A stretch of 64,000 nt of DNA from Bacteroidales bacterium (GTDB lineage Bacteria; Bacteroidota; Bacteroidia; Bacteroidales; UBA12077), in contig WTBR01000035.1 in NCBI GenBank assembly GCA_013138975.1, forward strand, positions 43,733-107,732, given 5' to 3'. Below, in pieces: positions 13,674 to 52,561 of the stretch (the first letter of the stretch is position 1; each line of letters opens with the position of its first letter). The notes below the pieces were generated by a model. That model was not told the DNA's origin. It saw only the letters and a program-made list of their open reading frames with translations, and did not search any database. A program made the translations under genes and the position numbers.

Positions 13674-13775
13674 ATTTAAATCTTATTTAAAGTGTTTATT
13701 ACATTTATGTTATACAAATTTATCATTTACATCATTTAGAATCCAATCAAATAGCGTTTTCGAAAGTATAATATT

Positions 13776-15057: not shown

Positions 15058-15062
15058 GTCAC

Positions 15063-15392: not shown

Positions 15393-15405
15393 AAGTTCTT
15401 AATTA

Positions 15406-16764: not shown

Positions 16765-16775
16765 CTTAATTTAAT

Positions 16776-17189: not shown

Positions 17190-17191
17190 AA

Positions 17192-34298: not shown

Positions 34299-34814
34299 AT
34301 GAATGTAAAAAAATTATTATTAATTGTTTGTTCTGTATTTCTTGTAGTTAGCATGTCGAAAGCACAAGATTATGAGTACATTGGCGCTGCAAAATGTAAA
34401 ATGTGTCATAATAAAGAAGTTAAAGGTAAACAATACGACATTTGGAAAACTAAAGATCATGCAAAAGCAATGGAGTCTTTGGCAACTGACGAAGCAAAAA
34501 AATATTCAGATGATCCTCAAAATGATCCTAAATGTTTAAAGTGTCATTCAACTTATCATGTAGCTGCTAGTGCTGATTTAAACCTTACTATTAAAGCTGA
34601 TGAAGGTGTTTCATGTGAGTCTTGCCACGGACCAGGAAGTAAGTATAAATCAATGTCTATTATGAAAGATCACCAAGGCAGTTTAGATAATGGTATGATT
34701 GTACCTACAGAAGCTGTTTGTAAAACTTGCCATAACGAAGAGAGTCCTACTTATAAAGAATTTAATTATGCTGAAGCATTAAAGATGATTTCTCATCCAA
34801 ATCCTGCTAAATAA
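34299..34814 (+). CDS. Periplasmic tetraheme cytochrome (c554-like family)
   Basis: Signal peptide SKA|Q; YIGAAKCKMCH, CLKCH, GVSCESCHGPGS, CKTCH. Confidence 0.9.
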   Translation: MNVKKLLLIVCSVFLVVSMSKAQDYEYIGAAKCKMCHNKEVKGKQYDIWKTKDHAKAMESLATDEAKKYSDDPQNDPKCLKCHSTYHVAASADLNLTIKADEGVSCESCHGPGSKYKSMSIMKDHQGSLDNGMIVPTEAVCKTCHNEESPTYKEFNYAEALKMISHPNPAK

Positions 34815-35838: not shown

Positions 35839-36978
35839 TTAGCAGTTGATCTTATAGTATTTTTTTAATCCGTACAATGAAATTATATTTTGTAATACCT
35901 GAGAGGTACCTTCTATAACTTCCAAAACTTTTGCTTCGCGAAATAATCTTTCAACCGGATACTTATTATAAAATCCGTTACCTCCATGAACTTGCACAGC
36001 ATCTGTTGAAATTTGCATAGCTATTTTAGATGTTAGGTATTTAGCTATAATAGTTTCATTTACTGAGTCTTGATGATTTTGTTGACGTAGAGATGCTACT
36101 TTTTCCAGAAATGCACGAGTAGAATGAATATTGGCTACTGCATTGGCAATCATTTCTTGTATAAGCTGAAAGGTATAAATCTTTTTTCCAAATTGCTTTC
36201 TTTCTCTGGAATAATTAACCATAGCTTCAAGCGCTTCCTGTGCAATGGCAAGTCCACCCCAAGCAATGCTGTATCGACCATGATCCAGTGCCGTTGAAAC
36301 GATATATGCAAAACCACCTCCATCAACCCCAATTCGATTTTCCTTTGGGACTTCTACATTGGTAAATTCAATCTCACTTATATAAGATGCTTTTGCAGCC
36401 ATTAAACCTTTTATTGGTTTAATTGTGACACCTGGTGTTTTAGTGTCAACCATATATGCATTTACTTTTTTGCCATTTGTAGCAATAACAAGTAAATAAT
36501 CTGCTACACCGGAAAATGTAATCCACTTTTTACTTCCATTTATGATTACTGCATTTTCCTTTTCTTCGTAACTTGTTTGTATACTAGATGCATCGGTGCC
36601 AACATTTGGCTCTGTTAAGGCAAATGCTGTGATAATATTGCCCTCGGCCATATCTGGGAGCCATTTATTTTTTTGTGCTTCATTTCCCCATCGTAATATT
36701 GCTGAACCAACCAGCGAAGTATGAACTGTAAGTAAGGATCTCGCTGTACAATCTGCTTTACCAATTATTTCTGTAAGTAAACCATAATTGTATGGATCTA
36801 AGTTCATACCATTATACTTTTCGGGAAATGTTGCACCCAAAAACTTAGCTTTCCCCATTTCTTTAATCAGTTGAGCAGGAAATTGCTGCTTTTCTTCAAA
36901 TTCAGCTGCAAAAGGCCTGATTTTAGTATTGGCAAACTCTTTTGCACTCTCCAAAAAATCTTGTATAACTTCACTCAT
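35839..36978 (-). CDS. Acyl-ACP/CoA dehydrogenase (FkbI/ZmaE-like)
   Basis: RSLLTVH, FALTEPNVGTD, GSKKWITF, QVHGGNG, EVIEGTSQ; context with FkbH and ACP. Confidence 0.88.
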   Translation of the reverse strand: MSEVIQDFLESAKEFANTKIRPFAAEFEEKQQFPAQLIKEMGKAKFLGATFPEKYNGMNLDPYNYGLLTEIIGKADCTARSLLTVHTSLVGSAILRWGNEAQKNKWLPDMAEGNIITAFALTEPNVGTDASSIQTSYEEKENAVIINGSKKWITFSGVADYLLVIATNGKKVNAYMVDTKTPGVTIKPIKGLMAAKASYISEIEFTNVEVPKENRIGVDGGGFAYIVSTALDHGRYSIAWGGLAIAQEALEAMVNYSRERKQFGKKIYTFQLIQEMIANAVANIHSTRAFLEKVASLRQQNHQDSVNETIIAKYLTSKIAMQISTDAVQVHGGNGFYNKYPVERLFREAKVLEVIEGTSQVLQNIISLYGLKKYYKINC

Positions 36979-36989
36979 TGCATTAAATA

Positions 36990-37241
36990 TTAATCACTTA
37001 AAACTTCGGTTTTCTTCTTTATCAAGGCTTCAATTCTATTTACAGAACTAAAATTCGATATTTCCATATCATCATCATCAACTTCCATATTAAATTCTGT
37101 TTCAATATAGTTAAGCAGCTTCATTGAGAACAAAGAGTTTACAAATCCTTTTTCGAAGATATTATCATCATCCTTAATTTCAATCTCATCATCCAGATTT
37201 ATTAAATTATCTGAAATGAACTTTACAATTTTTTCTTTCAT
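36990..37241 (-). CDS. Discrete acyl carrier protein (FkbJ/ZmaD-like)
   Basis: 83 aa, acidic, GFVNSLF phosphopantetheine site, NFSSV. Confidence 0.9.
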   Translation of the reverse strand: MKEKIVKFISDNLINLDDEIEIKDDDNIFEKGFVNSLFSMKLLNYIETEFNMEVDDDDMEISNFSSVNRIEALIKKKTEVLSD

Positions 37242-37315
37242 TATATTCGTTTTTAAAATTTTATTGCATTCGTATAATCTGATTCTTATAAAATTATAAA
37301 TTTTTATGAGAAAAT

Positions 37316-37434
37316 GTACTAACGTTTCAGCTAGAAGTTAGCGAGATTTAACAACAATATTGCCTTCTTTTTTGCTTAGTTTCAAATAAAAAAACTTTAC
37401 ATAATACGTATTAAACCCGCTTACTTTTGAGCTG
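37316..37434 (-). other. Imperfect inverted repeat at the 3' end of the inserted gene (attC-like)
   Basis: cagctagaagttagcgagattta (37328) pairs with taaacccgcttacttttgagctg (37412); GTTAGTA follows on the minus strand. Confidence 0.4.
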
Positions 37435-38089
37435 TGGACATAGACTGACTTTCCCGATTACAACACTGTCTATCAACTTCATTCCATGCATCGATTCTGT
37501 TTTGCCAATTAAAACTTAACATATTTTCTTTAATCTTGTCACCTAATTTCTTTATATCTTTTTTCTTTTCGAAATTAGCCAACTGTTCTCCTAATTTCCT
37601 CGCACTATCTTCTAATAGTTCAAATTGTTCTGAGTCAATTTTTGAAAGCTCGGGAAGATCAAATTCTCCAAACTTAATTTCATGTAATTCTTCTTCTAAT
37701 GCTTTGACCTTAATTTTAATCTTTTTCTTTTCTGTATTAAGTTTTGTAATTTCTACTTTCTTTTCAGTTTCATTTTTGAGAAAATCATTAATTTTATTCT
37801 CTTTTTCCCTAATCTCATTCTCAGCATTTTCTAGCTGTTCAAGTAAAAGTTGATTATATTCTTCCATTTGAAGTTTAACACTATCAAAATACTCCTTTAT
37901 TTTCATAGGAGTCATGTCTTTATAGAACTTAATACTTTCATTTAATTGTGTAATGAGAGAATCTTTTGATTTAATTATTTCATCTTTGGCATTTTTATAT
38001 TCCTTACTCCATCTTATTTTAGCAATCCAAGCTAATATTGCTCCCAAAAGGCTTATTGCAGTGATGATTTGTTCGGTTGTAATTGCCAT
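37421..38089 (-). CDS. Hypothetical protein, N-terminal TM plus coiled coil (inserted gene)
   Basis: IITAISLLGAILAWIAKI then K/E-rich coiled coil. Confidence 0.75.
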   Translation of the reverse strand: MAITTEQIITAISLLGAILAWIAKIRWSKEYKNAKDEIIKSKDSLITQLNESIKFYKDMTPMKIKEYFDSVKLQMEEYNQLLLEQLENAENEIREKENKINDFLKNETEKKVEITKLNTEKKKIKIKVKALEEELHEIKFGEFDLPELSKIDSEQFELLEDSARKLGEQLANFEKKKDIKKLGDKIKENMLSFNWQNRIDAWNEVDRQCCNRESQSMSTAQK

Positions 38090-38180
38090 ATTTATAAAGT
38101 TTGCTAATTCTGTTAAATTAATTATTAAATCTTAAAAATTTCATTCCCAAATGCGTTTGCAGTTATAAATATTGCCCAAT

Positions 38181-38300
38181 AAAATAATATACTTCCCTAT
38201 TTTAACCTTAAACATGAAGTTATTTAGGGAAAACATCCTTAAATATTACAAATCCATTTTAATATAATCAGGGTTTGGTGGTATAAATGATAAATCATTT
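38181..38300 (-). repeat. Diverged duplicate of the fkbH 3' end and downstream sequence (other copy 38654-38771)
   Basis: Encodes NDLSFIPPNPDYIKMDL* versus NDLTFIPPNPEYIKMEL* in fkbH; ~65 bp of shared 3' flank. Confidence 0.92.
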
Positions 38301-38562
38301 AGAAACAAATTAAGACTTCTTCCCAAAACTTTGTTTTACCATCAGACGATTCCATTTTCAGTTGGTTACAATTTGTAACCAACTCACTTCCTTCTTTTTT
38401 AAGTCTGCTTTTTAATACCTTCCAGTAATTATTTGGATTAACGCTTTCGGATAGCAATCCAACAATATCGACTATCGAAAAATACCATTTTTCTTGTTCT
38501 TCGTCCCAATGTACACGAACCCGTTTGTCTTGAAATAATTTTATTGCATTTTCTTTTGTCAT
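38299..38562 (-). pseudogene. Truncated BRO-N / phage antirepressor-like gene
   Basis: IKLFQDKRVRVHWDEEQEKWYFSIVDIV, YWKVLKSRL, CNQLKMESSDGK, then family similarity appears to stop. Confidence 0.75.
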
Positions 38563-38717
38563 ATTTTCATTTCAATAAATCAATTCCAAAATTAGTCAAT
38601 ATTTTTTAGTCTAAATTGTAATTGGAAAACGAATTTTTACAATGAATGCCAACAAAATAATATACTTCACTATTTAGTATTAAACATGAAGTTATTTAGA
38701 GAAACCATCCTTAAATA

Positions 38718-39740
38718 TTACAATTCCATTTTAATATATTCAGGGTTTGGTGGTATAAATGTTAAATCATTTTCAAATACTATATGTCCATCATCACTAC
38801 GCTCAATTTCTTTAAAATTTGCAAATTTATAAGTAACATACATAATTTTATTTCTATCGGTACGCAGAAAATCTGCTGTAAGCGTCTTCCCATCCTGTTT
38901 AGTCTCATTCATGATATGATATAAAAGCAAACTTCCAACGCCTCTACTCATAACTCTGCAAGACATTAACAGCAGTTTCATGTGATTTACATTTTCCTGC
39001 AATTCTACTAAAGCTAAACCTATCTTTCCGTAACTTCCATATTTATCAGTAAGTTCACAAACATAAAGTCTATGGGTATCCGAAGTTCTAAATTCATCCA
39101 ACTCTTCGTAACTAAATGTTACACCTGTTGAATTTAGCTGATGTGTTCTCTCCGTAAGCTCCAATGCTCTCTTTAAGTCTTCACTTCCTGCTGGTTTAAT
39201 TTTAAACACCATATCAAGAGTTTTAAGAAATGATTCTTCAGGCCCCTGATATTCTTCTTCTTCAACTTTGCGTTTAATATCATCCATATACATCTTTCTT
39301 CGTTTTTCCGAATCAGAAGTAATAAACTTTGGATTCAATCTGGGATTTTCCAATAATGTTTTATACTCTAAGGCATCAATACATTCTACTGTTTCGAGTT
39401 CAGAATTAACTTCATCACGCTCAAATGGCTGATCGTCAATAAATATTAGGGTATCAAATCCAATATTAATATTTTCTTTAATATTTTTTACCGATAATGA
39501 TTTTGCATTCCAATTTATTTCCGGATATAGAAAATATTGATCCAAGCCAAATTCTTCAAGTTTTTTTATAGCATCCTCGTGATTATTTTTACTGGCAATG
39601 GATTGCAATATCCCTCTTTTATCAATCTCTTTTATAATTTCCGAAATATTATCTTTTAGCTTTACATTCTTATCTTCAAGTAAAACACCGTCCCAGATAG
39701 TATTATCCAGATCCCATATTATACATTTAGACTCTTTCAT
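38718..39740 (-). CDS. fkbH: FkbH-family glyceryl transferase/phosphatase (HAD IIIC)
   Basis: WDLDNTIW, SIASKN, INWNAKS, FIDDQPFER, RTHQLN, LLMSCRVM. Confidence 0.95.
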   Translation of the reverse strand: MKESKCIIWDLDNTIWDGVLLEDKNVKLKDNISEIIKEIDKRGILQSIASKNNHEDAIKKLEEFGLDQYFLYPEINWNAKSLSVKNIKENINIGFDTLIFIDDQPFERDEVNSELETVECIDALEYKTLLENPRLNPKFITSDSEKRRKMYMDDIKRKVEEEEYQGPEESFLKTLDMVFKIKPAGSEDLKRALELTERTHQLNSTGVTFSYEELDEFRTSDTHRLYVCELTDKYGSYGKIGLALVELQENVNHMKLLLMSCRVMSRGVGSLLLYHIMNETKQDGKTLTADFLRTDRNKIMYVTYKFANFKEIERSDDGHIVFENDLTFIPPNPEYIKMEL

Positions 39741-39758
39741 ATAAGTAATTATTATATA

Positions 39759-40613
39759 TTAATATTTATAAAATCCTTCGCCTGATTTCCTACCTAATAA
39801 ACCAGCATCTACCATTTTTTGTAATAATGGACATGGTCTGAATTTTGAATCCTTAAAATTATCGTACAAAACGTTTAACGAATCTAAAACAGTATCTAAT
39901 CCAATTAAATCTGCTGTTTCTAAAGGTCCCATACTATGCATATACCCTTTTTTAAAGATCGCATCAACATCAGCCGGATTAGCAATACTTTCATACACCA
40001 CAAATGCAGCTTCGTTCATAAAAAGATGTGACAAACGGTTGGCTACAAAACCTGGACTATCATTAACTACAACAGACTGTTTATCAATTGATTTTAAAAA
40101 AGCTTTAATAACATCAATTGTCTCTTGAGAAGTATGAAAGCCTTTAATTGTCTCAACCATTGCTTTTAAAGGAACAGGATTCATAAAATGAAGTCCTATT
40201 ACTTTTGATGGATCTACAAAATGAGATGCAAGCTTAGTGATAGGTATACATGAGGTATTAATGGCAAAAATAGTATCAGGTTTACAAAGGTCTTTTATCT
40301 CCTTAATAACTCCAATTTTTATATCAACCAACTCATTTACATTCTCAATTACAAGATCAACTTTATTAAAATTATTATACGTTAACTGAAAAGTTATTTT
40401 TTGTAATACTTCATCCAAGGATTCTGTAACCAGACTTCTATTCATCATTTTTACCATTCGGTAATCTGATTTAATCTTACTTTTTGCATCCTCAAGTGCA
40501 TCAGCTGATATATCCTTTAAAATCACAGGATAGCCTTTTAAAGCCAGATTAAGAGATACTCCACAGCCCATTACTCCAGCGCCGATTACTGCTATTTGAC
40601 CTATTTCTTTCAT
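39759..40613 (-). CDS. 3-hydroxyacyl-CoA/ACP dehydrogenase (FkbK/ZmaG-like)
   Basis: GAGVMG, NTSCIPIT, GLHFMNP, MGPLETADLIGLD, GRKSGEGFY. Confidence 0.9.
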   Translation of the reverse strand: MKEIGQIAVIGAGVMGCGVSLNLALKGYPVILKDISADALEDAKSKIKSDYRMVKMMNRSLVTESLDEVLQKITFQLTYNNFNKVDLVIENVNELVDIKIGVIKEIKDLCKPDTIFAINTSCIPITKLASHFVDPSKVIGLHFMNPVPLKAMVETIKGFHTSQETIDVIKAFLKSIDKQSVVVNDSPGFVANRLSHLFMNEAAFVVYESIANPADVDAIFKKGYMHSMGPLETADLIGLDTVLDSLNVLYDNFKDSKFRPCPLLQKMVDAGLLGRKSGEGFYKY

Positions 40614-41120
40614 TTTCAGTTAATTTTAATATTTTACACAAAACTGCTTAGAACAAAGATGTCTATATCCTATTTTAAATTGACTCTAAAATATAAATAT
40701 TCAATCCTAAAATATTTATTGAATACTTCAGTTAATAGTAGGTAGAGTGTATAAAAACGCAGTAAGGATTTCGTTATATAAAGCTTCGCTAACAAAACTC
40801 ACATGCAATTTAATCCTAAATTATTAATTACGAAAATACACTTATTAATAAAAAAATATTAATAAAAAACCGCATTTTTTGTCTAAAAATTATTTTTAGT
40901 AATTAAACCTCAAGTATTTTTAATTCAAACATTAGATTAATACATACGAATAAATAATCGTAAAGCATAAGATTGACATTATAAACACGAGCTATAAAGG
41001 TACGAATGGGATTTACGAAACGGATCCTGACACACCAAAATCCTAAGTTACAAATAAGTCACTTTTTGAAGTTTGCAAAATGAATTATTTAAGCTAGTAA
41101 GAAAAATATGCAACACTAAT

Positions 41121-41462
41121 TAGTTCTGTCTATAAAGTAAGAGTCTTGTTCAGAATGTTCGATTTTGAGGCTTGCGAAATTGCAAAAATTAAGGAGTTTA
41201 CAAGGCTTTGAATTCCGATAGCTATCGGAATATCTTTGACGCTTTCTTATCAAAGACTTGAAAAAAAGGCAGTTTTCTTGCTGACACTAGTTAAAGTCTG
41301 TCCATAAATTCGGGTGTTTGATTCAGAAAGTTCGAGATCAAGGTTTGTGAAGTTTTAAAAATCAAGAGTTTACTTTTGTAAATGCGATGTACTGAGCATG
41401 TCGAAGTAACTGATTTTTAAAACGAGCATAACGCAGATATCGGACTTTATGGACAAACACTA
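41121..41462. mobile_element. Two adjacent degenerate ~170-bp MITE-like elements
   Basis: Second copy bounded by gtctgtccataaa (41296) / tttatggacaaac (41446); first begins tctgtctataaa with similar 5' half; each holds a different REP. Confidence 0.55.
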
Positions 41463-41501
41463 TTTAAGTCTTATCTTAATATTCAAATTGTCCAATAATG
41501 T

Positions 41502-42509
41502 TTATTGATTTTTAATTATTTTAAATAAAGAGTTAAGCCATTCATCAGTATCATTTAAACTACTAACTAATGTTAATTTTTCACCACCATTTTTTATAAA
41601 CAATTCCTGATATTCATGCTGAATCTCAATAATTGTTTCAAGACAATCTGTTACGAATGATGGGGATACAACTAATATTTTTTTAATACCCTTTTGAGCT
41701 AAATCTTTAATAATTTGATCGGTAAAAGGATTTAGCCATTTGTTTGATAATCGAGACTGAAAGCCTACTGAAAATTCGTTTTGCGTCAAACCTAAACCTT
41801 TTACTATAAGTCGATTAGTTTCATAGCATGTAGCTTTATAACACAACTTGCCATGTTCGGGCATTTCATTAATACATTCGCAACTATCATTTGATATAGA
41901 GGAATGAATTTTATCTATATGACTTATAGGCAAACCATGATAAGAAAAAATAATATGATCATAATCCTTTGGATCATATTTTAAAATTTGATTCACATAT
42001 GTGTTTATAAATTCAGGATGATTATAAAACTGATGAATGAGTTTAATGCCTGGTATTACATTCCAGTTTTTCAATTCATTAAATATGGCTTCAAATGCAG
42101 ATCCTGTAGTTGATGATGCGTACTGCGGATATAAAGGTAATATGATAATTTCGTCTGGGTTTTCCTCCTTTATTTGCTTTAAAGTAGTTATTAATGATGG
42201 ATTTCCATATCGCATCCCCAAATAAATCTTATAATCTTTATTAAATTTATTCTGCAGTTTATTCTTTAATTCTGTAGAGTAATGAAGTAAGGCTGACCCT
42301 TTTTCTGTCCATAAATTCTTATACAACTTGCTAGACTTACGAGCACGAAAAGGAATAATTATTCCATTTACTAATATCTTTCTTAAAAAAAATGGTAATG
42401 TAATTACACGTTTATCATTTAAAAACTCCGACAAATACCGTCTTACATCCGATAGTGCAGGACTATCCGGAGTACCAATATTTATAAGTAATACCGCAAC
42501 TTTCTTCAA
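41502..42509 (-). CDS. hemH: Ferrochelatase
   Basis: LLINIGTP, GMRYGNP, PLYPQYASSTTGS, FSYHGLP, FQSRL, FVTDCLET. Confidence 0.96.
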   Translation of the reverse strand: MKKVAVLLINIGTPDSPALSDVRRYLSEFLNDKRVITLPFFLRKILVNGIIIPFRARKSSKLYKNLWTEKGSALLHYSTELKNKLQNKFNKDYKIYLGMRYGNPSLITTLKQIKEENPDEIIILPLYPQYASSTTGSAFEAIFNELKNWNVIPGIKLIHQFYNHPEFINTYVNQILKYDPKDYDHIIFSYHGLPISHIDKIHSSISNDSCECINEMPEHGKLCYKATCYETNRLIVKGLGLTQNEFSVGFQSRLSNKWLNPFTDQIIKDLAQKGIKKILVVSPSFVTDCLETIIEIQHEYQELFIKNGGEKLTLVSSLNDTDEWLNSLFKIIKNQ

Positions 42510-42511
42510 AT

Positions 42512-42769
42512 CTATACTATTCTTGTTTTATATTTCAACCTATAAATATATTTTCCTGTATATTGACCAATAATAAACATTGCTACAAATAAAACTATGT
42601 ATTTCCAATCAGAATTAATATTACAAAGATATCTTAACAAGATGGATATACCTACTGGCACATGTATGGCCAGAAACCATTTTAATGAAAAACGTTTTAC
42701 ACCTCCCCGCCAATAACCAAAAGGTACATTTATAATATAAACCAAAATTGATACTAATATAGGAATCAT
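42512..42769 (-). CDS. Small membrane protein of unknown function
   Basis: INVPFGYWR..FSLKWFLAIHVPV; tightly packed in the operon. Confidence 0.75.
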   Translation of the reverse strand: MIPILVSILVYIINVPFGYWRGGVKRFSLKWFLAIHVPVGISILLRYLCNINSDWKYIVLFVAMFIIGQYTGKYIYRLKYKTRIV

Positions 42770-42770
42770 T

Positions 42771-44147
42771 CTATATGGTGCTATTAATTATTTCATTGGC
42801 AACTTGCTTACCCTGTTTTACTCTATCTGCCATTCCAATTCCATCTCTGATATTTCCTGCAAGTATTAATCCCGGATATTTTTTCTGGATTTGTTCTATA
42901 GCATTAAACCTGACACCTGATGATGCTTCATATTGAGGAATAGCTTTTTTATATCGTAATATTGTTAATAAATCTGGTTTTTGAGTACTCTTCAATGTTT
43001 CAGCTATTTCAGAAAGGACTATTTCTTCTATTTCATTATCGGTCATTTCAATTATTTCAGGTTTTTTTACACCACCCATAAATACTGAGATAATTGCTCC
43101 TTCTTTTGGTGCTCTGTCTGCAAATAGAGTCGATGGAAATAAAATCCCCAAACTGTTTCGATTTTCTTTTGATGGCACCAAGCCACCAAATGCATTTAGC
43201 TCTATTCCCTTCCAATTATTATAACAAACAACAGCTTGGACTACTTTTGCGTAATTAAGGTTCGTAAGATCCTTCATTTCGTCTTCCTGCAAGAAAGATA
43301 ATAAATTAGTTAAATTCGATGCATCAACTGTTGTAATAACAATGTCAGATTGAATCTCAATTGGATTTTTATTGGATAGTAGATTTGTGATAAATCCTTT
43401 TCCATTTGGTTTTACCTCAACATCTGAACTATTCAATAAGATATTTTCATATCCAATTTCCTGAGTAATTGCATCTGTAAGGTTTTTTAATCCTCCTTTT
43501 ACTGAAAAAACTTCACGACTAACTCTTTTCTCTATTTCAGTTTTGGGTTCTTTTTTCTTCTTTAATGCTCCTTTAATAAAGCTACCATAATTTTGTTCTA
43601 AATTATAAAGTTTAGGTAGAGCATATTTTGTTACAAGTTTTGATGGATCTCCTGCATATATTCCTGAAATAAAAGGATCAATGGCATAATTAAGAAAACT
43701 TTTACCCATGCGTCTAAGTACTAATTCAGCCACAGATTCATCAGGATTTAAACCTGGTTTTCGAAAAGGTTCTCCGAGAATTCTAAATTTATCTTTTAAA
43801 CTAAACAATGGTGTAAATACTGCTGAAATAAAACCGGAAGGTAGTGCATGCCAATTCTTATTTTTCCATATCCATCTGTTGTTAGCCTTTGGATTAGCTG
43901 CTTCAGGCTTTATTTTATCTTTTAAATCATCAAACAGTTCAACGAGTTCTGTTGTTCCAATTATACCTGTATTGGGCCCCGTTTCAAATATAAACTCATC
44001 TTGCTTTACGGTATTAATAACTCCTCCCGTTCTATTATCTTTTTCTATTAACAATACTTTTTTTCCAGCTTTGCTAAGATAAAAAGCAGTTGTAAGCCCT
44101 GATAGTCCGGCTCCTAAAACAACAATATCAACTTTTTTATTACTCAT
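42771..44147 (-). CDS. hemG: Protoporphyrinogen/coproporphyrinogen oxidase (HemY-type flavoprotein)
   Basis: Likely start MSNKK at 44147; GAGLSGL, FETGPN, PFISGIYAGD, FGGLVP, AIPQY. Confidence 0.93.
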   Translation of the reverse strand: MSNKKVDIVVLGAGLSGLTTAFYLSKAGKKVLLIEKDNRTGGVINTVKQDEFIFETGPNTGIIGTTELVELFDDLKDKIKPEAANPKANNRWIWKNKNWHALPSGFISAVFTPLFSLKDKFRILGEPFRKPGLNPDESVAELVLRRMGKSFLNYAIDPFISGIYAGDPSKLVTKYALPKLYNLEQNYGSFIKGALKKKKEPKTEIEKRVSREVFSVKGGLKNLTDAITQEIGYENILLNSSDVEVKPNGKGFITNLLSNKNPIEIQSDIVITTVDASNLTNLLSFLQEDEMKDLTNLNYAKVVQAVVCYNNWKGIELNAFGGLVPSKENRNSLGILFPSTLFADRAPKEGAIISVFMGGVKKPEIIEMTDNEIEEIVLSEIAETLKSTQKPDLLTILRYKKAIPQYEASSGVRFNAIEQIQKKYPGLILAGNIRDGIGMADRVKQGKQVANEIINSTI

Positions 44148-44148
44148 T

Positions 44149-45528
44149 TTATACGGTTTTGGAATATTTGTTTTCTTGTTCAATATACTCTGGATCAAAA
44201 GTTGCAGCAATATTTCTAATAAATAATGAGCCCTTTCCAGAAACTTCAATTTTATTATCAATGAATGTCATTAAATCATCGCTTATAAAATTTTTAAGTT
44301 TGTTTTCATTAAATCCTGTAATTTTCTCTACAGCATCTATATTTATTTGATATTTTTCGGCAATCTTTGAAAGATCAAGTTGATTATTGCACATAAGTTC
44401 ATTAATGATGTCCCGAACAATAATTTGATCTTTTGTTAATAACATCCTTTTTTCTACCGGAAACTTTCCCTTGTTTACGGTCTCAATATAAATATCTAAT
44501 TCCTTAACATTTTGTGCGTATCCATTCTCAAGTTGACTTATCGACGAAACACCAAAAGCATAAACTTGTCCTGTTGTTCTTTTTGTGCAATAGCCCTGAA
44601 AATTACGATGTAAACTATTTTGATTTAAAGCCTGGCCTAGTTCATCTTTAGGCAATACATAATGATCTAAACCAACTGGTAAATATCCTGATTCTAATAA
44701 TAATTCTCGTGCAGACAAGAACATTTCCATTTTAAGCTCAGATGAAGGAAGTCCCTTTTTTTCGAGTATAATTTGATGTTTTTTTAACCACGGAACATGT
44801 GCATATGAAAAAGTTACTAATCGATCTGGTTTAATTTTTATCGCCTGATTTATTGTTTTTAAGAAACCATCTACATTTTGTCCAGGCAAACCATAAATAA
44901 AATCGAGGTTTACAGCAACTAATGGATTTTTCTTTTTTAAATAACTAACTATTTCGTTAACAGGCAGAGCTGATGGAGAACGATTTACCGATTTCAAAAT
45001 TTCCGTATTAAAATCCTGAATACCTAAGCTAAATCGGTTAAATTTCGCACCCAATAAACGATCAATATAGTCGTAATCAAGCTGTGCAGGATTGCATTCT
45101 ATAGCAATTTCAGGATTTTCAATTAGTGAAAATTCATTAAATATTAAATTATTTATTTCTTCAATATATTTAACATCAATTGCATTAGGTGTGCCCCCTC
45201 CGTAATGAATTTGAGAAACTTTTCTGTTTTTATCTAAAGATCCAAAAACCTTTATAATCTCTTTTTTCAAAGCTTTTATGTATTCTTCAATCAACTGTTC
45301 TTCTTTAATGGTGCATGCATTACATCCACAATAAAAGCATATCTTTTTACAAAAAGGAATATGAATATATAAAGCTATATGATTAGGTTCTTGATTATTA
45401 GATTGCTCAATAAATTGTACATATTCAGATTCTGCAAATCCTTCTTTAAAATGATTAGCGGGGGGGTAACTTGTATAACGTGGTACCGGAATATTATATT
45501 TCTCAAGTATTTTTTTATCTACTTTCAT
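44149..45528 (-). CDS. hemN: Oxygen-independent coproporphyrinogen III oxidase (radical SAM)
   Basis: PRYTSYP, YIHIPFCKKICFYCGC, GGGTP, YAHVPW, RNFQGY. Confidence 0.96.
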   Translation of the reverse strand: MKVDKKILEKYNIPVPRYTSYPPANHFKEGFAESEYVQFIEQSNNQEPNHIALYIHIPFCKKICFYCGCNACTIKEEQLIEEYIKALKKEIIKVFGSLDKNRKVSQIHYGGGTPNAIDVKYIEEINNLIFNEFSLIENPEIAIECNPAQLDYDYIDRLLGAKFNRFSLGIQDFNTEILKSVNRSPSALPVNEIVSYLKKKNPLVAVNLDFIYGLPGQNVDGFLKTINQAIKIKPDRLVTFSYAHVPWLKKHQIILEKKGLPSSELKMEMFLSARELLLESGYLPVGLDHYVLPKDELGQALNQNSLHRNFQGYCTKRTTGQVYAFGVSSISQLENGYAQNVKELDIYIETVNKGKFPVEKRMLLTKDQIIVRDIINELMCNNQLDLSKIAEKYQINIDAVEKITGFNENKLKNFISDDLMTFIDNKIEVSGKGSLFIRNIAATFDPEYIEQENKYSKTV

Positions 45529-46729
45529 TTTTCTTTAATCTTAATGGATAATTATATAATAATACTAAAAATACAAATACAGCAAGAATAAACTCTACCC
45601 TATAGAGTCCGCTATAACCAATTTTGTCTCCAAGTCTACCACTTAAAATCGCAATTATTAAACCACTTAAATGAGTAACTACAATTTGAACAGTAAAGTC
45701 TGTACCTTCTCTGCCCTTTCTTACAATATCCATTGAAGTGGTGTAGATTATTACAGTTGATAATCCATATGCACCCCACAGAAGACAAATTCCAATATAA
45801 ATCTCAAAAAGAAGCGGTGTATGATTTGCCAGATATATAAAGAATGTAGCAGCTGATAAATTAATTAAAGCGAATATATAAATCGACGCTTTTCTCCCTA
45901 TTTTCTTTATAATGATACCTGCAAGTAATGCTGAAAGAGCCGCTACAGAGGTCCCAACAATACCTGACATAAATCCAATTTGTTTCACATTATAACCTAG
46001 ATCAACTAAGTAAGGTTTAAGCATTGCAAGAATTCCTATTATCCCAGAATAGTAGAAACCAAGAACAAGTAGACGTTTCCGACATGTTTTATCTTTAAAA
46101 AACACAAAGATATCACGTATTTTAACTCGTGGCTTATTAAACGTTTCCAAGCTGCCTTTTCCTTTATACAAAATCGTAGGTACTATTGCAAACACAACAA
46201 AAGCTGCTAATAAAAACAGCAAATTCTTCCAGCCAAAATAATAATATGCTAATAACAATACGCCAGTACCTAATAAACTTCCTATAAAACTTCCTGCCGA
46301 TTGCATGCTGTTTCCTGTTCCTCGTTCTTCAGGTTTTAAAATCAAAATGGCAAAAATATCTGTGGCAATATCCTGAGTTGCAGAAGCAATAAAAGCCACA
46401 AGCATTAAAATAATAATTAGACTAAAATCCGTTTTCAAATTAAAGAAACCAATACTAATAATCACAATTGCATAAAATAGTTCAGAAATAATAATCCAAC
46501 GTCTTATTTGCTTTCCGTTTTGCGTATAATTATCGACAAAGGGTGCCCAAAGAAACTTTAGAATCCACGGTAATTTTACTAATTGCAAGAGTCCTATGGA
46601 TTCCAACGAATATTGTTCCTGTCTCATAATTACAGGAACAACAGTAGAGAAAAAACTCATTGGAACCGACTGTGCTATATACAGACTAAATAAAACCGGA
46701 AATTTTTGCCAATCTTTTGATTTTTTCAA
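45515..46729 (-). CDS. MFS permease, AmpG/RhtX/FptX family
   Basis: LYIAQSVP, LPWILKFLWAPFVD, SATQDIATD, EGTDFT. Confidence 0.88.
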   Translation of the reverse strand: MKKSKDWQKFPVLFSLYIAQSVPMSFFSTVVPVIMRQEQYSLESIGLLQLVKLPWILKFLWAPFVDNYTQNGKQIRRWIIISELFYAIVIISIGFFNLKTDFSLIIILMLVAFIASATQDIATDIFAILILKPEERGTGNSMQSAGSFIGSLLGTGVLLLAYYYFGWKNLLFLLAAFVVFAIVPTILYKGKGSLETFNKPRVKIRDIFVFFKDKTCRKRLLVLGFYYSGIIGILAMLKPYLVDLGYNVKQIGFMSGIVGTSVAALSALLAGIIIKKIGRKASIYIFALINLSAATFFIYLANHTPLLFEIYIGICLLWGAYGLSTVIIYTTSMDIVRKGREGTDFTVQIVVTHLSGLIIAILSGRLGDKIGYSGLYRVEFILAVFVFLVLLYNYPLRLKKNESR

Positions 46730-46741
46730 TTTCTTATAAGA

Positions 46742-48853
46742 TTAAAATTTCAATGAAATATTTACTCCAATTTGCATTGGTTTACCCATTTGAACATAAG
46801 TGTTTCCTAATGCTTCGAATAAAAATGACCTATATTCTGAATTTAATATATTTTTTGCCCATATATCAAACTGCATTTTATTCTTTATGAAGGATATTTT
46901 TGCATTTAATAAACCATATGTCTCCTCATAATAAGAATTATCAAGATTCCAGTATGTTACTCCTTTTTGCTGATAACTAGCATTCATTTTAAAATAATCA
47001 ATAAATGAAATACTATTTAATTTAATCAATTGTGACAACTGAATAGCAAAAGTGTGTCTTGGAATATATGGAGTGAATTGATCATTATAATTAGTAGTAG
47101 AATCTTTTACATATTCGAGTATTCTTGAATGTGTATAACCATATGCAATCATGCCTTGAAATCCTTTAACACTCCTATTTTTTACGGATACCTCAACACC
47201 AGTGTTTTCTGATAATCCTGCATTGTCGAGATATGATCCTCTTCCACTTGGGACGGTTCTATATATCTGTTGATCTTGAAGTTTTGTGTAAAAACCCGCT
47301 AATTCTGAGTAAATAAAACTATTAAACATGGAAGTTTTTAAACCAAGTTCAAAATTATATGTCATTTCGTTTTTAAACATCAGATGTTCTGGTTCTTCAA
47401 AGGTAGAGTTAAATCCTCCTGGCTTATATCCAGTAGTATATGAAGCATAAATAGTAGATTTATTTATTTGATAGCTTAATGCAATTTTCGGCAATAAAAT
47501 ATAATCCTTTAGTTTTTTGTATGTTGTATCAGTATCTGCTAACTCAGTACCACCTCTTGTCATATTATATTTGTAGTTTAATTCTGATATTTCATAATCA
47601 TATCTTAAACCAGCAGTTATCGATAAATTCTTTGTTACATTTAAGGTAGACTGATGAAAAAGCGCAAAACTTGAAACATTTAATCCGTAATTCTTAATAT
47701 ACCAAATATCAGATGCATGCACATCAACTTCTACAGCTTTGTCAAAAACCTGCATAAATCCGAATGCACCAAATAGCCATTTATATTTTTCATTTCCTAC
47801 AGAATTAACTATAAGTTCATCCGAAATCATATTTTGATTCATAAATTGCTGAACAAAATACAAAGAGTCAGGAGAAAAATCTTGATCAATTTTCTGTACA
47901 TCATCAAGAAATTGATATGAAAAAGTATTATTCAGTTCCCATTTATTTCCTGAATATTTTAATTTCAATCCATTTGAAAATAAGAGTCTGTCGTATGAAC
48001 TTTGCTGATTATAGTTAATATCTTCGGCTTTTTGTAAAGAATCATTAAATATTGCATATGGATATCCACCCTGATCACTCTTATCAAAACTAGCAATATT
48101 TTCAATTGTTAATTTCTTAGAAATATTATAAATGATTTTACTTCTTAATCCAACAGAATTAAATTCGTCAACCTTTGAGTTAAAATACTTATTGGTGTAA
48201 AATCCGTCTCCATGTTGATAATTACCTGATAATGAAAATGCAATCTTTTCATTAAGTTTAGTATAATGGCTAGCATTCAATTTGTAATTTCCATAAGTTG
48301 CCGCAGTTATATGAATATTTGTTCCTTGGTAATTTTCTGGCGATAAAGTTAAAATATTAATAAGTCCTCCCATACAATTTCTACCATATAGCGTCCCTTG
48401 AGGTCCTCTAAGAATTTCTATTCGTTCAATATCAAAAAAATCAAAATCAAAGGCTGCTTTTTCAAAAAAGGGTACATTATCAACATATAAACCTACAGAA
48501 GGAGAGTTTATTCTTGATCCTACACCTCTAATATAAACAGGAGATGTAAGTTTGGAGCCATAATCCGGCATCACAAAGTTAGCAGCAAAATTACTAACCT
48601 GATTTAAAGAATTAATTTCATTAGATTCTATTAATGATTTCGATATTAGTGAAACTGATGCAGGAAGTTTTTTGAGTTTAGACTTATCTTTTGATGCAAC
48701 AATCACAATTTCTCCTAATTCCACTTCAGGAATCATAAGGCTATCGGTTGTTACAATAATTTCTTGAGCAATAATTGTTACAATAGAATTTAATATTAGA
48801 AATAAGGATAAAATAATTTTCATATTCATACTTTCAGTTTTAATAAGTTCCAA
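46742..48853 (-). CDS. TonB-dependent receptor (FyuA/iron-complex-like)
   Basis: Plug motifs YIRGVGS, VGLYVD, ERIEILRGPQGTLYGRN; GYKPGGFN; terminal F; true start probably a few codons downstream. Confidence 0.93.
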   Translation of the reverse strand: MELIKTESMNMKIILSLFLILNSIVTIIAQEIIVTTDSLMIPEVELGEIVIVASKDKSKLKKLPASVSLISKSLIESNEINSLNQVSNFAANFVMPDYGSKLTSPVYIRGVGSRINSPSVGLYVDNVPFFEKAAFDFDFFDIERIEILRGPQGTLYGRNCMGGLINILTLSPENYQGTNIHITAATYGNYKLNASHYTKLNEKIAFSLSGNYQHGDGFYTNKYFNSKVDEFNSVGLRSKIIYNISKKLTIENIASFDKSDQGGYPYAIFNDSLQKAEDINYNQQSSYDRLLFSNGLKLKYSGNKWELNNTFSYQFLDDVQKIDQDFSPDSLYFVQQFMNQNMISDELIVNSVGNEKYKWLFGAFGFMQVFDKAVEVDVHASDIWYIKNYGLNVSSFALFHQSTLNVTKNLSITAGLRYDYEISELNYKYNMTRGGTELADTDTTYKKLKDYILLPKIALSYQINKSTIYASYTTGYKPGGFNSTFEEPEHLMFKNEMTYNFELGLKTSMFNSFIYSELAGFYTKLQDQQIYRTVPSGRGSYLDNAGLSENTGVEVSVKNRSVKGFQGMIAYGYTHSRILEYVKDSTTNYNDQFTPYIPRHTFAIQLSQLIKLNSISFIDYFKMNASYQQKGVTYWNLDNSYYEETYGLLNAKISFIKNKMQFDIWAKNILNSEYRSFLFEALGNTYVQMGKPMQIGVNISLKF

Positions 48854-49036
48854 AAATCATGAATAATTCTGAAGCAAATCTGTAGTTTACGGCAATCTCT
48901 GGCTACATATGAAAATATTAAAACTTAGAACCCTGGCAGTGTGAATTTTATAACAGAACAAAATATATAATTATTTTTCTATATACGTATATTCATATTA
49001 AGAACAATGTTATATTTAAATAAAGTTAATAAAATG

Positions 49037-49065
49037 AAAAAAGGGTAGCTAAATGCTACCCTCTT
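49037..49065 (-). terminator. Terminator after hydrogenase operon 2
   Basis: aaaaaagggtagc-taaat-gctaccct. Confidence 0.8.
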
Positions 49066-49089: not shown

Positions 49090-50880
49090 TTATACTCTTT
49101 TTCTTTTAACATAATGAGTGTGTAATAACTCATGTGATTTATGTCCAAGAGGTTCTCCAAGGAACTCTTTATATATTTGAGTAATCTCAGGATTTTCATG
49201 TGATTTACGTATTTCCATACCTTCATCTTCACGATAAATTGCATCAGCACGTTTTTGACGAATTTCAGGAGTAGTTGGAATTGGTTGGCCTCCACCACCA
49301 ATACATCCACCTGGACAACCCATTACCTCTACAAAGTGATAATTAGCTGTTCCTGCTTTGATTGCATCCATTATTTGATGAGCATTTTTTAAACCGTGTG
49401 CAATAGCTGTTTTTAACTCAACACCTTCTAGGAAACTCCAAGCTGGTAATACATTCTCTATCTTAACTGAAGCTTCACGAACACCTTCCATACCACGAAC
49501 AGCAGTAATGTTTAAGTTTTCGAAAGGAACTTCTCTACCGGTTACTAATTCATATGCGGTACGAAGAGCTGCTTCCATTACACCACCTGTTGCGCCAAAA
49601 ATTACAGCAGCACCAGTTGATTGCCCCATTAAACTATCAAATTTCTCATCTGGTAATGAATTAAAATCAATACCGGCTTGCTTAATCATTACAGCAAGTT
49701 CACGAGTAGTAATACCTAAATCTACATCTTGATATCCACTACCTCTCATTTCTGGACGTGCAGCTTCAAATTTCTTAGCTGTACAAGGCATGATAGATAC
49801 ACTAACAATTTTTGCAGGATCTAATTTCTTTTTTTCTGCATAATATGTTTTAACAAGAGCACCAAACATCTGCTGTGGTGACTTACATGTAGATAAATTA
49901 TCCAAATAATCTGGATACATATGCTCTATATACTTAACCCAACCTGGTGAACATGAAGTAAACATAGGTAATTTTACACTTGCATCTTTATCTACTAGCG
50001 CTTTTTTAAGTCTGGTAAGTAACTCAGTACCTTCTTCCATTATTGTTAAATCGGCAGAAAAATCAGTATCAAGAACTGAATCAAAACCTAATCTTCTTAA
50101 CGAAGCAGCCAATTTACCTGTAACAATATTTCCTGCTTCCATTCCAAACTCTTCGCCTAAAGCAATACGAGTAGCTGGAGCTGTTTGAACAACAACATGC
50201 ACATTTGGATCATGTATAGCATCCCAAACCTGCTCAATATAATTTTTCTCAATCAACGCACCTGTAGGGCAGCGAATTACACACTGACCACAATTAGTAC
50301 AAACTACATCAAACATTGAGTTTTCGAAGAAAGTAGATATCTTCATTTTATCGCCTTTATAAGCAACTCCTAATGCACTTACATGTTGCAAATCATGACA
50401 AGTTCTTACACAACGCTGACAACGAATACATTTACTATCATCCTTAATTATTGAAGGAGAAAAGTTATCTATTGTATAATTTTTTTCAGGTACAAGATCA
50501 AGAAACATATTCTCGCTTATAATCATATCACTTGCTAAATCCTGCAACTCACAACTTTTATTCTTGTAACATTTTGTACAATCAGCATTATGCTCTGAAA
50601 GCAGTAATTCAACAATATGCTTACGAGCATTTCTTACCTTATGTGTGTTTGTATGAATAACCATTCCTTCTTGAGCAGGCATTGCACACGAAGCAACAAG
50701 GTTTTTAGCACCCTCTTGTTCAACAACACATACTCTACAGTTTCCTGCTACACATAAATCTTCGTGATAACAAAGAGTAGGAATATGAATATTTAATTCC
50801 TTTGCAGCATCAAGAACAGTTTTCCCAGCCTCAACGCTTACGTCGATTCCGTCTATATTTAAATTTACTGTATTAGCCAT
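49090..50880 (-). CDS. hydA: Second group A [FeFe]-hydrogenase catalytic subunit
   Basis: TSCSPGW, MPCTAKKFE, EVMGCPGGCIGGGGQP; full N-terminal Fe-S domain set. Confidence 0.97.
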   Translation of the reverse strand: MANTVNLNIDGIDVSVEAGKTVLDAAKELNIHIPTLCYHEDLCVAGNCRVCVVEQEGAKNLVASCAMPAQEGMVIHTNTHKVRNARKHIVELLLSEHNADCTKCYKNKSCELQDLASDMIISENMFLDLVPEKNYTIDNFSPSIIKDDSKCIRCQRCVRTCHDLQHVSALGVAYKGDKMKISTFFENSMFDVVCTNCGQCVIRCPTGALIEKNYIEQVWDAIHDPNVHVVVQTAPATRIALGEEFGMEAGNIVTGKLAASLRRLGFDSVLDTDFSADLTIMEEGTELLTRLKKALVDKDASVKLPMFTSCSPGWVKYIEHMYPDYLDNLSTCKSPQQMFGALVKTYYAEKKKLDPAKIVSVSIMPCTAKKFEAARPEMRGSGYQDVDLGITTRELAVMIKQAGIDFNSLPDEKFDSLMGQSTGAAVIFGATGGVMEAALRTAYELVTGREVPFENLNITAVRGMEGVREASVKIENVLPAWSFLEGVELKTAIAHGLKNAHQIMDAIKAGTANYHFVEVMGCPGGCIGGGGQPIPTTPEIRQKRADAIYREDEGMEIRKSHENPEITQIYKEFLGEPLGHKSHELLHTHYVKRKRV

Positions 50881-50914
50881 GTTTTATCTAAATTTTATTT
50901 TTATCAATAATTAA

Positions 50915-52075
50915 TTAGTAAATCATTTCTTCTTTAAAGTTATCAACGATAGAAGAGAATGAATTAGCCACAGACTGACCTAAACCACATTTAGCAGATA
51001 CTTTCATTGTGTCTGCTAATTTTTGTAAAGTATCTAAATAAGTAGCTGATTTTTCGCCTTTCTTAACTGCCTCTATACCCAATTTAAGTTGCTGGCAACC
51101 TACACGACAAGGAGTACATTGTCCACATGATTCTTCCTCAAAAAACTCAACGTAATTCTTTAATACATTATACATTGATCTTGAACTATTGAAAAGCATC
51201 ATAGAACCTCCAGTTGGTACACCTTCGAATCCAATAATTGTGTCTTTGAATTTTTTTCTTGGCACACAAAATCCTGAAGCTCCACCTACTTGTACAGCTT
51301 TAGTGTCTCCATCACCGAAATCTTCAACAAAATCTTCTAGTGACATACCTAGCTCTAATTCAAAAATTCCTGCAACAGGAGTATCTCCAGATACACTAAA
51401 CAGTTTAGAACCACGAGAATCAGATGTTCCAAGTGTTTTAAACTCATCAGCACCTAACCTCATAATCATTAATGTATTAACGAAAGTTTCAACATTATTA
51501 ATAACAGTAGGTTTTCCAAATAATCCTGATACTGTAGGATACGGAGGTTTATTACGAGGTTCTCCACGTTTTCCTTCAATTGACTCAAACAAAGCACTTT
51601 CTTCTCCACAAATATATGCTCCACTACCCATACTTATTTTAATTTCAAAATCTAAGTTATTTTCTTTTACACATTTATGAAATAACTCAAGTTCTGCCAT
51701 TAAATCTGGTAACATATAAACATATTCACCTCTTAAATATAAGTAACCTTTTTTTGCACCAATAGCTTTAGCACAAATAGCCATACCACTGAAAACTTTT
51801 CGAGGAACTCTTGTTAGAATTTCACGATCTTTAAATGTTCCAGGCTCACCTTCGTCAGCATTACAAACCACATATTTTATTGGATCTGCTTCATTAGCAG
51901 TATATTTCCATTTCAAACCAGTTGGAAATCCAGCACCCCCACGACCTTTAAGTCCTGAGTCTGTTACTTCTGAAATAATTTGATCACTTGATTTTTTTAA
52001 AGTCTCTCCAAGTACTTTATACTTTTCTTGCGTATAAGCACCAAATATTATATCAACTCTTTTTAAGTTTTTCAT
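50915..52075 (-). CDS. hydB: Short NuoF-like diaphorase subunit (non-bifurcating type)
   Basis: 386 aa; GRGGAGFPTG, NADEGEPGTFKDR, GAYICGEE, GGASG, CGQCTPCR; no N- or C-terminal ferredoxin domains. Confidence 0.92.
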   Translation of the reverse strand: MKNLKRVDIIFGAYTQEKYKVLGETLKKSSDQIISEVTDSGLKGRGGAGFPTGLKWKYTANEADPIKYVVCNADEGEPGTFKDREILTRVPRKVFSGMAICAKAIGAKKGYLYLRGEYVYMLPDLMAELELFHKCVKENNLDFEIKISMGSGAYICGEESALFESIEGKRGEPRNKPPYPTVSGLFGKPTVINNVETFVNTLMIMRLGADEFKTLGTSDSRGSKLFSVSGDTPVAGIFELELGMSLEDFVEDFGDGDTKAVQVGGASGFCVPRKKFKDTIIGFEGVPTGGSMMLFNSSRSMYNVLKNYVEFFEEESCGQCTPCRVGCQQLKLGIEAVKKGEKSATYLDTLQKLADTMKVSAKCGLGQSVANSFSSIVDNFKEEMIY

Positions 52076-52087
52076 TTCTAAATCTCC

Positions 52088-52561
52088 TTATTTTCGAATA
52101 TATTCCATTATAATTTCGGTTATCTTATTCACATCTAAGCTATCATAAGGGGTTGAGTTTATTAGCATAGCAGGCCCTTTATGGCACCAACCCAAACAAT
52201 TTGTTTCAAGAAGAGTAAACTTATTGTCTTTTGTTGTTTCACCAACCTTAATTTTAAGTAAATCTTCAATAGTTTGAATCATTTGCTTCTTACCTTTCAT
52301 ATCGCAAGTAATAGTTTTGCATATACGAATTACATACGTACCTCTAGGCTCTGTGTCAAGAAATGAGTAGAAAGTTGCTGTTCCATACACCAATGCAGCA
52401 GACATATTCAATTCCTCTGCTACCTCAGACATGGCAACATCAGAAATGGATTGTTCTTCTGTGATGATGCCCTGCAAAATAGGAAGTAAACTTTCTCTAT
52501 TTCTTCCATGTTTGTCAGCTAATTGCTTAACTAATTCTTTAATTTCTGGCATTTCGATCAA
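52088..52561 (-). CDS. hydC: NuoE-like [2Fe-2S] subunit
   Basis: ATFYSF, CKTITC, CLGWC; start may be ATG at 52552. Confidence 0.92.
   Translation of the reverse strand: MIEMPEIKELVKQLADKHGRNRESLLPILQGIITEEQSISDVAMSEVAEELNMSAALVYGTATFYSFLDTEPRGTYVIRICKTITCDMKGKKQMIQTIEDLLKIKVGETTKDNKFTLLETNCLGWCHKGPAMLINSTPYDSLDVNKITEIIMEYIRK

Follow-up and report, generated by a model that had tools for sequence, protein, structure and literature searches.

FptA/FptX, RhtA/RhtX, and FyuA/YbtX, which serve the uptake of pyochelin, rhizobactin 1021, and yersiniabactin, respectively, are import pairs that each consist of a receptor and a permease. Among haem auxotrophs, Haemophilus influenzae, which has only the ferrochelatase, salvages protoporphyrin IX (PPIX); to our knowledge, no dedicated precursor transporter has been described in ferrochelatase-only auxotrophs. 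Trypanosomatids reportedly retain just the final three enzymes of haem synthesis and start from coproporphyrinogen. The locus analyzed here lies in a 64,000-nt stretch (hereafter, the window) of contig WTBR01000035.1 from the draft genome of a Bacteroidales bacterium. At positions 41502 to 48853 of the window, on the minus strand, six tightly packed open reading frames (ORFs) code, in this order, for a TonB-dependent receptor (TBDR), a permease of the major facilitator superfamily (MFS), HemN, HemY, a small membrane protein, and HemH, an order that agrees with the original prediction for this DNA. Judging from sequence and distribution, this operon probably imports a late haem precursor, most likely coproporphyrinogen III or coproporphyrin III, and finishes haem by means of HemN, HemY, and HemH. 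The arrangement is far beyond chance, because 80 loci in genomes other than this one show it again.

Like the three siderophore systems, the operon has a TBDR gene beside a single AmpG-like MFS gene, as expected for two-step import. Unlike in those systems, the scores fall far below the family cut-offs (167.7 versus 356 bits for the permease), there are no siderophore genes nearby, and the pair is tied to hemN and nearly excluded from genomes that have both HemN and hemE (1 of 44), its presumed cargo being a metal-free tetrapyrrole. The Hmu (HmuYRSTUV) and Hus (HusAB) systems of Porphyromonas gingivalis also represent receptor-based tetrapyrrole acquisition in Bacteroidota, but the operon differs from both in having no haemophore-like lipoprotein conserved beside the receptor, in assigning the inner-membrane step to an MFS protein, and in the location of its genes inside a hem operon. 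PMC12094164 proposes, as a hypothesis, that Hus takes up PPIX or coproporphyrinogen III for use by HemN, HemG, and HemH. The host resembles Lactococcus lactis, as portrayed in PMC4696147, in lacking the start of the pathway and in probably completing haem from an imported late intermediate. In contrast to the PPIX-salvaging auxotrophs, which perform only the last step, the operon retains three enzymatic steps and a candidate transporter. Its three-step late-entry logic is that of the trypanosomatids, which are, however, eukaryotes with oxygen-dependent enzymes and a transporter that is unrelated or unknown. Finally, the muropeptide permease AmpG shares the MFS subfamily fold of the operon permease, whose context is haem synthesis and not cell-wall recycling.

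The source genome (a 6.81-Mb draft in 221 contigs, 97.8% complete, with ∼30% G+C) belongs to a marine-sediment bacterium that is unable to start haem synthesis; the sequencing runs listed as containing the window stretch are DNA runs from sediment metagenomes, with no RNA run among them. Whole-genome family searches detected no hemA, hemB, hemC, or hemE, and hemL yielded only weak aminotransferase matches, the best of which reached 185 bits against a cut-off of 527. HemF was not found in the host genome either, and none of the 54 window ORFs scanned against Pfam is an early hem gene, as had been noted from the window alone. The host does have an orphan hemD, a situation that PMC13096392 reports for other Bacteroidota as well.

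The distribution of the permease across the order is complementary to that of hemE. Of 301 genomes drawn evenly from the order (292 of them at ≥90% completeness and ≤5% contamination), 85 have HemN above the cut-off and 45 have hemE above the cut-off, leaving 256 without the latter; the permease was found in 43 genomes, hemB in 56, and hemH in 78. The permease is present in 39 of the 41 genomes that have HemN and lack hemE, in only 1 (G112) of the 44 that have both, and in 3 of the 216 without HemN. Of the two exceptions with HemN and neither hemE nor permease, G185 has a hemE that is cut by the contig start beside hemN-hemH, and G295 is 92% complete, has congeners that carry hemE, and ends one contig in a hemB fragment. 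Splitting the HemN-bearing genomes by hemB places the permease in 36 of the 38 that lack hemB versus 4 of the 47 that have it. Of the 40 genomes with both a permease match and a hemN match, 38 have the hemN match on the strand of the permease match and no more than 209 nt behind it. Permease-linked and hemE-bearing genomes occur together within seven GTDB families. It follows from this pattern that, in the sample, HemN is kept only where HemE or else the transporter is present. The transporter appears to stand in for the early pathway and to feed HemN.

In a HemN tree obtained by a quick IQ-TREE search from 41 rows (20 from genomes with hemE, 20 from genomes with the permease, and the window), salvage-linked and de novo HemNs interleave: parsimony counts 10 changes of state, of which well-supported branches demand a minimum of 6, and sister pairs are found within the same family (f20, f10). 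The HemN of the operon is therefore an ordinary enzyme, and the swap has been repeated. A scan of one genome per species yielded 80 loci with permease orthologues at 42 to 83% identity, carried by metagenome-assembled genomes and by named genomes of the Prevotella group, Parabacteroides, Tannerella, and Porphyromonas levii. The isolates among the carriers include Xylanibacter ruminicola KHT3, Prevotella pallens ATCC 700821, Segatella salivae DSM 15606, and P. levii DSM 23370. Clustering of the complete ORFs of ≥70 amino acids (aa) from these loci and the window, many of the 81 loci being cut by contig ends, placed the MFS permease in 79, the TBDR in 72, hemN in 71, hemY in 62, hemH in 31, and the small membrane protein in 6 of them, and every other ORF cluster in no more than 5. 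Thus, only the receptor-permease-hem module is conserved, and its flanks are not. Its commonest layouts are TBDR-MFS-hemN-hemY (16 loci) and TBDR-MFS-hemN-hemY-hemH (14 loci); five loci have the order TBDR-hemN-hemY-MFS. No siderophore-synthesis, haemophore, or reductase gene is conserved beside the module in the 81 loci. Beyond Bacteroidales, a 401-genome sample of the phylum contained no permease orthologues, just matches of 28 to 33% identity in 3 genomes. The absence of hemA, hemL, hemB, hemC, and hemE from the host and the conserved linkage, complementary to hemE across the 301 genomes, both support the import of a coproporphyrin(ogen)-type precursor put forward in the original prediction, the nature of the cargo being deduced from the genes.

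The receptor gene (46742 to 48853) is separated from the permease gene (45515 to 46729) by 12 nt; the permease gene overlaps hemN (44149 to 45528) by 14 nt, so that hemN starts inside its end. If hemY (42771 to 44147) is taken to start at ATG 44147, it follows hemN after 1 nt, whereas the listed ORF start at TTG 44261 would overlap hemN; gaps of 1 nt and 2 nt separate it from the small membrane protein gene (42512 to 42769) and the latter from hemH (41502 to 42509), respectively. With that hemY start, the genes overlap or lie at most 12 nt apart, as had been claimed. The operon genes, including that of the permease, are single copy in the genome, and a HemN-like paralogue, 28% identical to the operon HemN, is encoded on another contig (C51). 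The region 3′ of hemH (40614 to 41501) comprises 888 nt without an ORF of ≥60 aa and without an Rfam match at E ≤ 1.

The receptor ORF extends over 703 aa from TTG 48853, but translation more likely starts at ATG 48829 or 48823, which immediately precede the signal peptide. A plug domain (PF07715; 61.3 bits versus a cut-off of 23.9; E = 1.5e-16) occupies residues 60 to 163, and residues 49 to 702 align to residues 14 to 653, the whole chain, of FyuA (4epa; E = 2.6e-32); despite this full-length alignment, no Pfam model of the 22-strand barrel expected C-terminally matched at E ≤ 0.001. The stretch ELGEIVIVAS after the signal peptide is a candidate TonB box. Against the NCBIfam models of siderophore, B12, and haemin receptors, every score of the receptor stays below the cut-off. 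The 404-aa permease matches MFS_1 (PF07690; 115.8 bits versus 33.4; E = 2.7e-33) over residues 13 to 357 and is a putative inner-membrane importer of the AmpG/RhtX-FptX kind. Membership of the RhtX/FptX family (TIGR02718; 167.7 bits, cut-off 356.15) and of the AmpG muropeptide transporters (TIGR00901; 143.9 bits, cut-off 350) was rejected, neither cut-off being reached; its best solved relative is an AmpG (8zgz; E = 7e-27). Among 29 permease sequences, 65 columns are invariant, a mixture of acidic and basic residues included, and give no hint at the cargo. The earlier characterization of the pair as a FyuA-like receptor and an RhtX/FptX-type permease thus holds in the sense that FyuA is the best solved relative of the one and RhtX/FptX the best NCBIfam model, at a score below its cut-off, of the other.

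The three enzymes are assigned with high scores. HemN, a radical S-adenosylmethionine (SAM) protein annotated as oxygen-independent coproporphyrinogen III dehydrogenase, matches the equivalog model TIGR00538 with 452.5 bits versus a cut-off of 324.95, and its CX3CX2CXC motif (C60, C64, C67, and C69) and GGGTP are invariant in 28 sequences; the fourth Cys presumably sets HemN apart from HemW. HemY is a protoporphyrinogen oxidase (PPO) dependent on flavin adenine dinucleotide (FAD), with 287.8 bits versus a cut-off of 97.85 against TIGR00562 and E = 4.3e-40 against PF01593, and, among solved structures, the tobacco PPO (1sez, 190 bits) ranks ahead of the Bacillus subtilis enzyme (3i6d, 145 bits). 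Pfam gives FAD/NAD-binding and amine-oxidase families only, so that the protein is not the flavodoxin-like HemG and the label "hemG" that it previously carried should be replaced. HemH (TIGR00109, 261.4 bits versus a cut-off of 124.6; PF00762, E = 2.3e-97) is a ferrochelatase whose best solved relatives are the human ferrochelatases, with no B. subtilis enzyme found at E ≤ 1e-10. Its H191 and E291/E295, invariant in 23 sequences, are presumably catalytic. In the same 23 ferrochelatases of this clade, C210, C212, C223, and C228 are near-invariant and may form an internal [2Fe-2S] site.

Occurring together, the receptor and the permease imply import. The operon would then provide a route that brings a late, metal-free haem precursor through both membranes and is coupled to the enzymes that complete the cofactor: the TBDR would move the precursor over the outer membrane and the MFS permease over the inner membrane, after which HemN would convert coproporphyrinogen III to protoporphyrinogen IX, HemY would oxidize the latter to PPIX, and HemH would add iron. 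The precursor would come from other members of the anoxic sediment community that release coproporphyrinogen III or coproporphyrin III, and the resulting haem would supply, among others, the multihaem cytochromes encoded nearby. Because, judging from the distribution, such import makes up for all steps through HemE and is of use only in combination with HemN, the cargo should be the compound that HemN acts on, either as such or oxidised. As no reductase gene is conserved beside the module, the reduced porphyrinogen is favored, a cargo that is plausible where oxygen is absent. The direction of transport, the cargo, and the reduction of any oxidised coproporphyrin are what we infer from the genes.

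Several observations weigh against the import of a HemN substrate. HemN needs a reduced porphyrinogen, whereas coproporphyrin is mostly excreted in its oxidised form, and the module comes without a linked reductase. In sequence, the receptor comes nearest to FyuA, which is a siderophore receptor, and RhtX/FptX and AmpG are the models nearest to the permease. The Fisher P value of 1e-20 for the split between permease and hemE makes the case look stronger than it is, since the genomes are related, and the evidence that genes are missing comes from draft assemblies. The permease is accompanied by hemB in four genomes, one of which (G112) also has hemE, and hemH was not seen in 11 of the 43 genomes with the permease. 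The host genome carries, on another contig, a homologue of HmuY, by means of which it may take up haem as well. Last, the permease occurs without HemN in G192 (TBDR-MFS-hemY-hemH), G103 (TBDR-MFS), and G074 (MFS alone); a search of four genomes, the host and these three, found no HemF that would substitute for HemN, and the cargo in such genomes may be a later porphyrin(ogen).

These HemN-less genomes bear directly on the unlikely alternative that the pair imports a later or different tetrapyrrole, such as protoporphyrin(ogen) IX or haem, with HemN, HemY, and HemH being merely co-located or acting as a chaperone or dechelatase. TBDR-MFS-hemY-hemH without HemN is also the layout of locus L036, and the hemH of G103 lies elsewhere in its genome. 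According to PMC4696147 and PMC12094164, PPIX together with iron supports the growth of Bacteroides and P. gingivalis, and according to PMC13096392, the HemN-like HemW proteins are haem chaperones. A general importer of haem or PPIX should, however, be common among the 216 genomes without HemN, which are mostly haem auxotrophs, and only 3 of them have the permease. With PPIX or haem imported, the cell could also do without hemN and hemY, yet no gene is linked to that of the permease as tightly as hemN, which adjoins it in 38 of 40 genomes, and the operon HemN passes its equivalog cut-off and retains the fourth Cys. In addition, the FRAP/NPNL box of haem receptors was found in none of the 77 members of the receptor cluster. 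The cargo range may nevertheless reach later porphyrin(ogen)s in some lineages, such as those of G192, L036, and G103 and the genomes without hemH.

The relatedness to FyuA and RhtX/FptX, together with the need of ferrochelatase for iron, would fit an importer of a siderophore or other metallophore, similar to FptA/FptX, that brings iron to HemH, a function that had also been suggested for this operon. This is very improbable: genomes with both HemN and hemE need iron equally and have the permease in 1 case out of 44, as opposed to 39 out of 41 among those that lack hemE. Both proteins score well below the family cut-offs, the 11 permease-bearing genomes mentioned above have no ferrochelatase in sight, the closest link of the pair is with hemN and not with hemH, whose cluster is represented in just 31 of the 81 loci, and no siderophore-synthesis gene is conserved nearby. 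Import of B12 finds no support, as no cobalamin riboswitch was found and the distribution fits poorly. The least probable of the alternatives is a variant of the coproporphyrin-dependent pathway, with HemY acting as CgoX, HemH as CpfC, and the radical SAM "HemN" decarboxylating coprohaem anaerobically, a reaction with a precedent in AhbD, which decarboxylates Fe-coproporphyrin by radical SAM chemistry. It would have the merit of using coproporphyrin III in the oxidised state, in which it is excreted most often, and HemY does match the CgoX of B. subtilis with the 145 bits given above. On the other hand, HemY is nearer the plant PPO, HemH has human and no B. subtilis enzymes as its solved relatives, and the operon HemN passes the equivalog model and interleaves with the HemNs of genomes that have the de novo protoporphyrin pathway. 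Import of coproporphyrinogen III or coproporphyrin III for HemN is the preferred reading.

The 85-aa membrane protein encoded between hemY and hemH has no match in Pfam or NCBIfam. Its PFGYWR and WFLAIHxPV blocks, which include a conserved His, are invariant in 16 sequences, and it is found in 6 of the 81 permease loci. With more than 524 relatives in metagenomes, its family is large though unnamed; a paralogue is encoded on contig C134 of the genome. Among the 80 best metagenome relatives, 10 adjoin hem genes, and only the closest members lie between hemY and hemH; the others neighbour genes for a DEAD helicase, glutathione peroxidase, PTA, and similar proteins. With 10 of 80 beside hem genes, a role as a general partner of HemY and HemH was ruled out.

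Upstream of the receptor gene, a terminator-like hairpin (49069 to 49035) ends hydA and closes a set of [FeFe]-hydrogenase genes; the operon therefore has its own 180-nt leader, an intergenic promoter region at 48854 to 49034 on the minus strand. No riboswitch, cobalamin or other, was detected by Rfam at E ≤ 1 between 40500 and 49300, apart from a weak rli61 match of 27 bits against a gathering score of 50. In a promoter scan, promoter-like sites were no commoner than in shuffled sequences, the hairpin after hydA being the one strong terminator-like structure. No upstream motif was found to be shared between the window and its relatives, which carry lineage-specific elements. One of these, present in relatives and not in the window, is a small ORF on the same strand directly upstream of the receptor gene (e.g., L002:4467-4796, plus strand), coding for ∼110 to 135 aa that begin with a hydrophobic helix (MFxFGxF...PY), vary in the middle, and close with RPPP and 3 to 6 further residues. 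It occurs in 22 of the 52 loci with ≥450 nt of upstream sequence, all from environmental lineages, including L003, L005, L007, L008, L010, L012, L013, L016, L018, L020-L022, L024-L026, L037, L040-L042, and L054. The protein has no Pfam family; a language-model search placed a SecM-like cluster at rank 27, a lead only, and the ORF may code for a ribosome-arrest leader peptide that controls the operon. Loci of the Prevotellaceae type have instead an inverted repeat upstream of the receptor gene, ATCCTCA and TGAGGAT separated by 4 nt, which is absent from the window. Both arms are exact in L071, L074, L057, and L065, and one arm is present in L069, L072, L076, L029, L055, L067, L081, L051, L021, and L031. 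In L069, L071, and L074, the repeat lies, as judged by eye, ∼25 to 35 nt upstream of a TAnnTTTG-like promoter box, and it is a candidate operator for some regulator.

Comparison with three genomes of the same genus (G098, G211, and G299), none of which has the permease, HemN, hemB, hemE, or hemH, shows that the operon lies in an extra segment. The hydABC genes of all three congeners match the window in blastn at 78% identity up to positions 49027 to 49037. G299 matches window positions 24765 to 25072 and, 66 nt further on, those from 49029 onward, which delimits an extra segment of ∼24 kb (25073 to 49028); in G098 and G211, the match at 49037 and 49027 is followed after ∼260 to 390 nt by sequence that corresponds to window positions ∼17650 to 16400, giving an extra segment of ∼31.4 kb (17642 to 49036). 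The segment of 24 to 31 kb holds a gene for a Crp-like regulator, four cytochromes c, cytochrome b561, a set for an FkbH protein, an acyl carrier protein (ACP), an acyl-CoA dehydrogenase, and hbd, and the whole operon. Its edges bear no tRNA gene and no flanking repeat, and there is no integrase among the Pfam matches. According to Pfam, a ResB/CcsA fusion is encoded at 22013-25096 and cytochrome b561 at 33534-34151; the multihaem cytochromes c at 26028-27134, 29445-32222, 32606-33532, and 34299-34814 have 6, 19, 7, and 4 CXXCH motifs, respectively (36 in total). The suggestion that the operon supplies these neighbouring haem-rich proteins finds weak support, from three comparators, in their sharing the extra segment with it, but the neighbourhood is not conserved elsewhere.

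One of these cytochromes, encoded at 29445-32222 on the minus strand, is a single chain of 925 aa that contains, besides its 19 CXXCH motifs, MtrC/MtrF-like domains as well as a membrane domain of the cytochrome b561 type. At 35839-40613, on the minus strand, genes for an FkbH-domain protein, ACP, acyl-CoA dehydrogenase, and 3-hydroxyacyl-CoA dehydrogenase stand together, a set that we take to resemble hydroxymalonyl- or methoxymalonyl-ACP extender-unit genes; no polyketide synthase was found in the window. There are two paralogous sets of trimeric [FeFe]-hydrogenase genes (group A6 type), at 9075-17536 and, on the minus strand, at 49090-52561, and the variable segment sits between them. The first set is followed by genes for a sensory-hydrogenase-like protein, histidine-kinase-like ATPases, and proteins with PHP and DRTGG domains.

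That Bacteroidota with only the late hem genes use coproporphyrinogen III or PPIX has been proposed before, in PMC12094164 and PMC13096392, the former of which calls precursor salvage in P. gingivalis a theoretical hypothesis, and PMC4696147 describes porphyrin cross-feeding from Escherichia coli to Bacteroides as shown. A search of the full-text literature, whose coverage leaves out most subscription journals, found no published description of a receptor-permease-hemN operon, and neither PMC13096392 nor PMC12094164 contains the term "MFS". The salvage idea is thus already in print; what appears to be new is the receptor-permease-hemN transporter, a siderophore-type pair apparently turned to a tetrapyrrole precursor. 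We consider the chances evenly balanced that it is the first bacterial system dedicated to taking up a haem precursor free of metal (coproporphyrinogen or coproporphyrin III), derived from a siderophore importer, which would serve ∼1 in 7 of the sampled Bacteroidales (43 of 301, with oral and gut members of the Prevotella group, Parabacteroides, Tannerella, and Porphyromonas) as late-entry haem producers on leaked porphyrins, would have replaced the early pathway at least 6 times, and, in the organism studied here, would have arrived or been kept with a block of multihaem cytochromes.

Why the late haem enzymes alone have been kept in many Bacteroidota is an open question, for which the transporter provides a concrete gene pair, a testable lead because its presence matches that of HemN without HemE almost one-to-one. 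If the pair functions as proposed, porphyrin(ogen)s would be exchanged within anoxic communities of the gut, the mouth, and sediments, some of the haem dependencies that block cultivation would be explained, and periodontal and gut Bacteroidales would have a nutrient-uptake step that could be measured or blocked.

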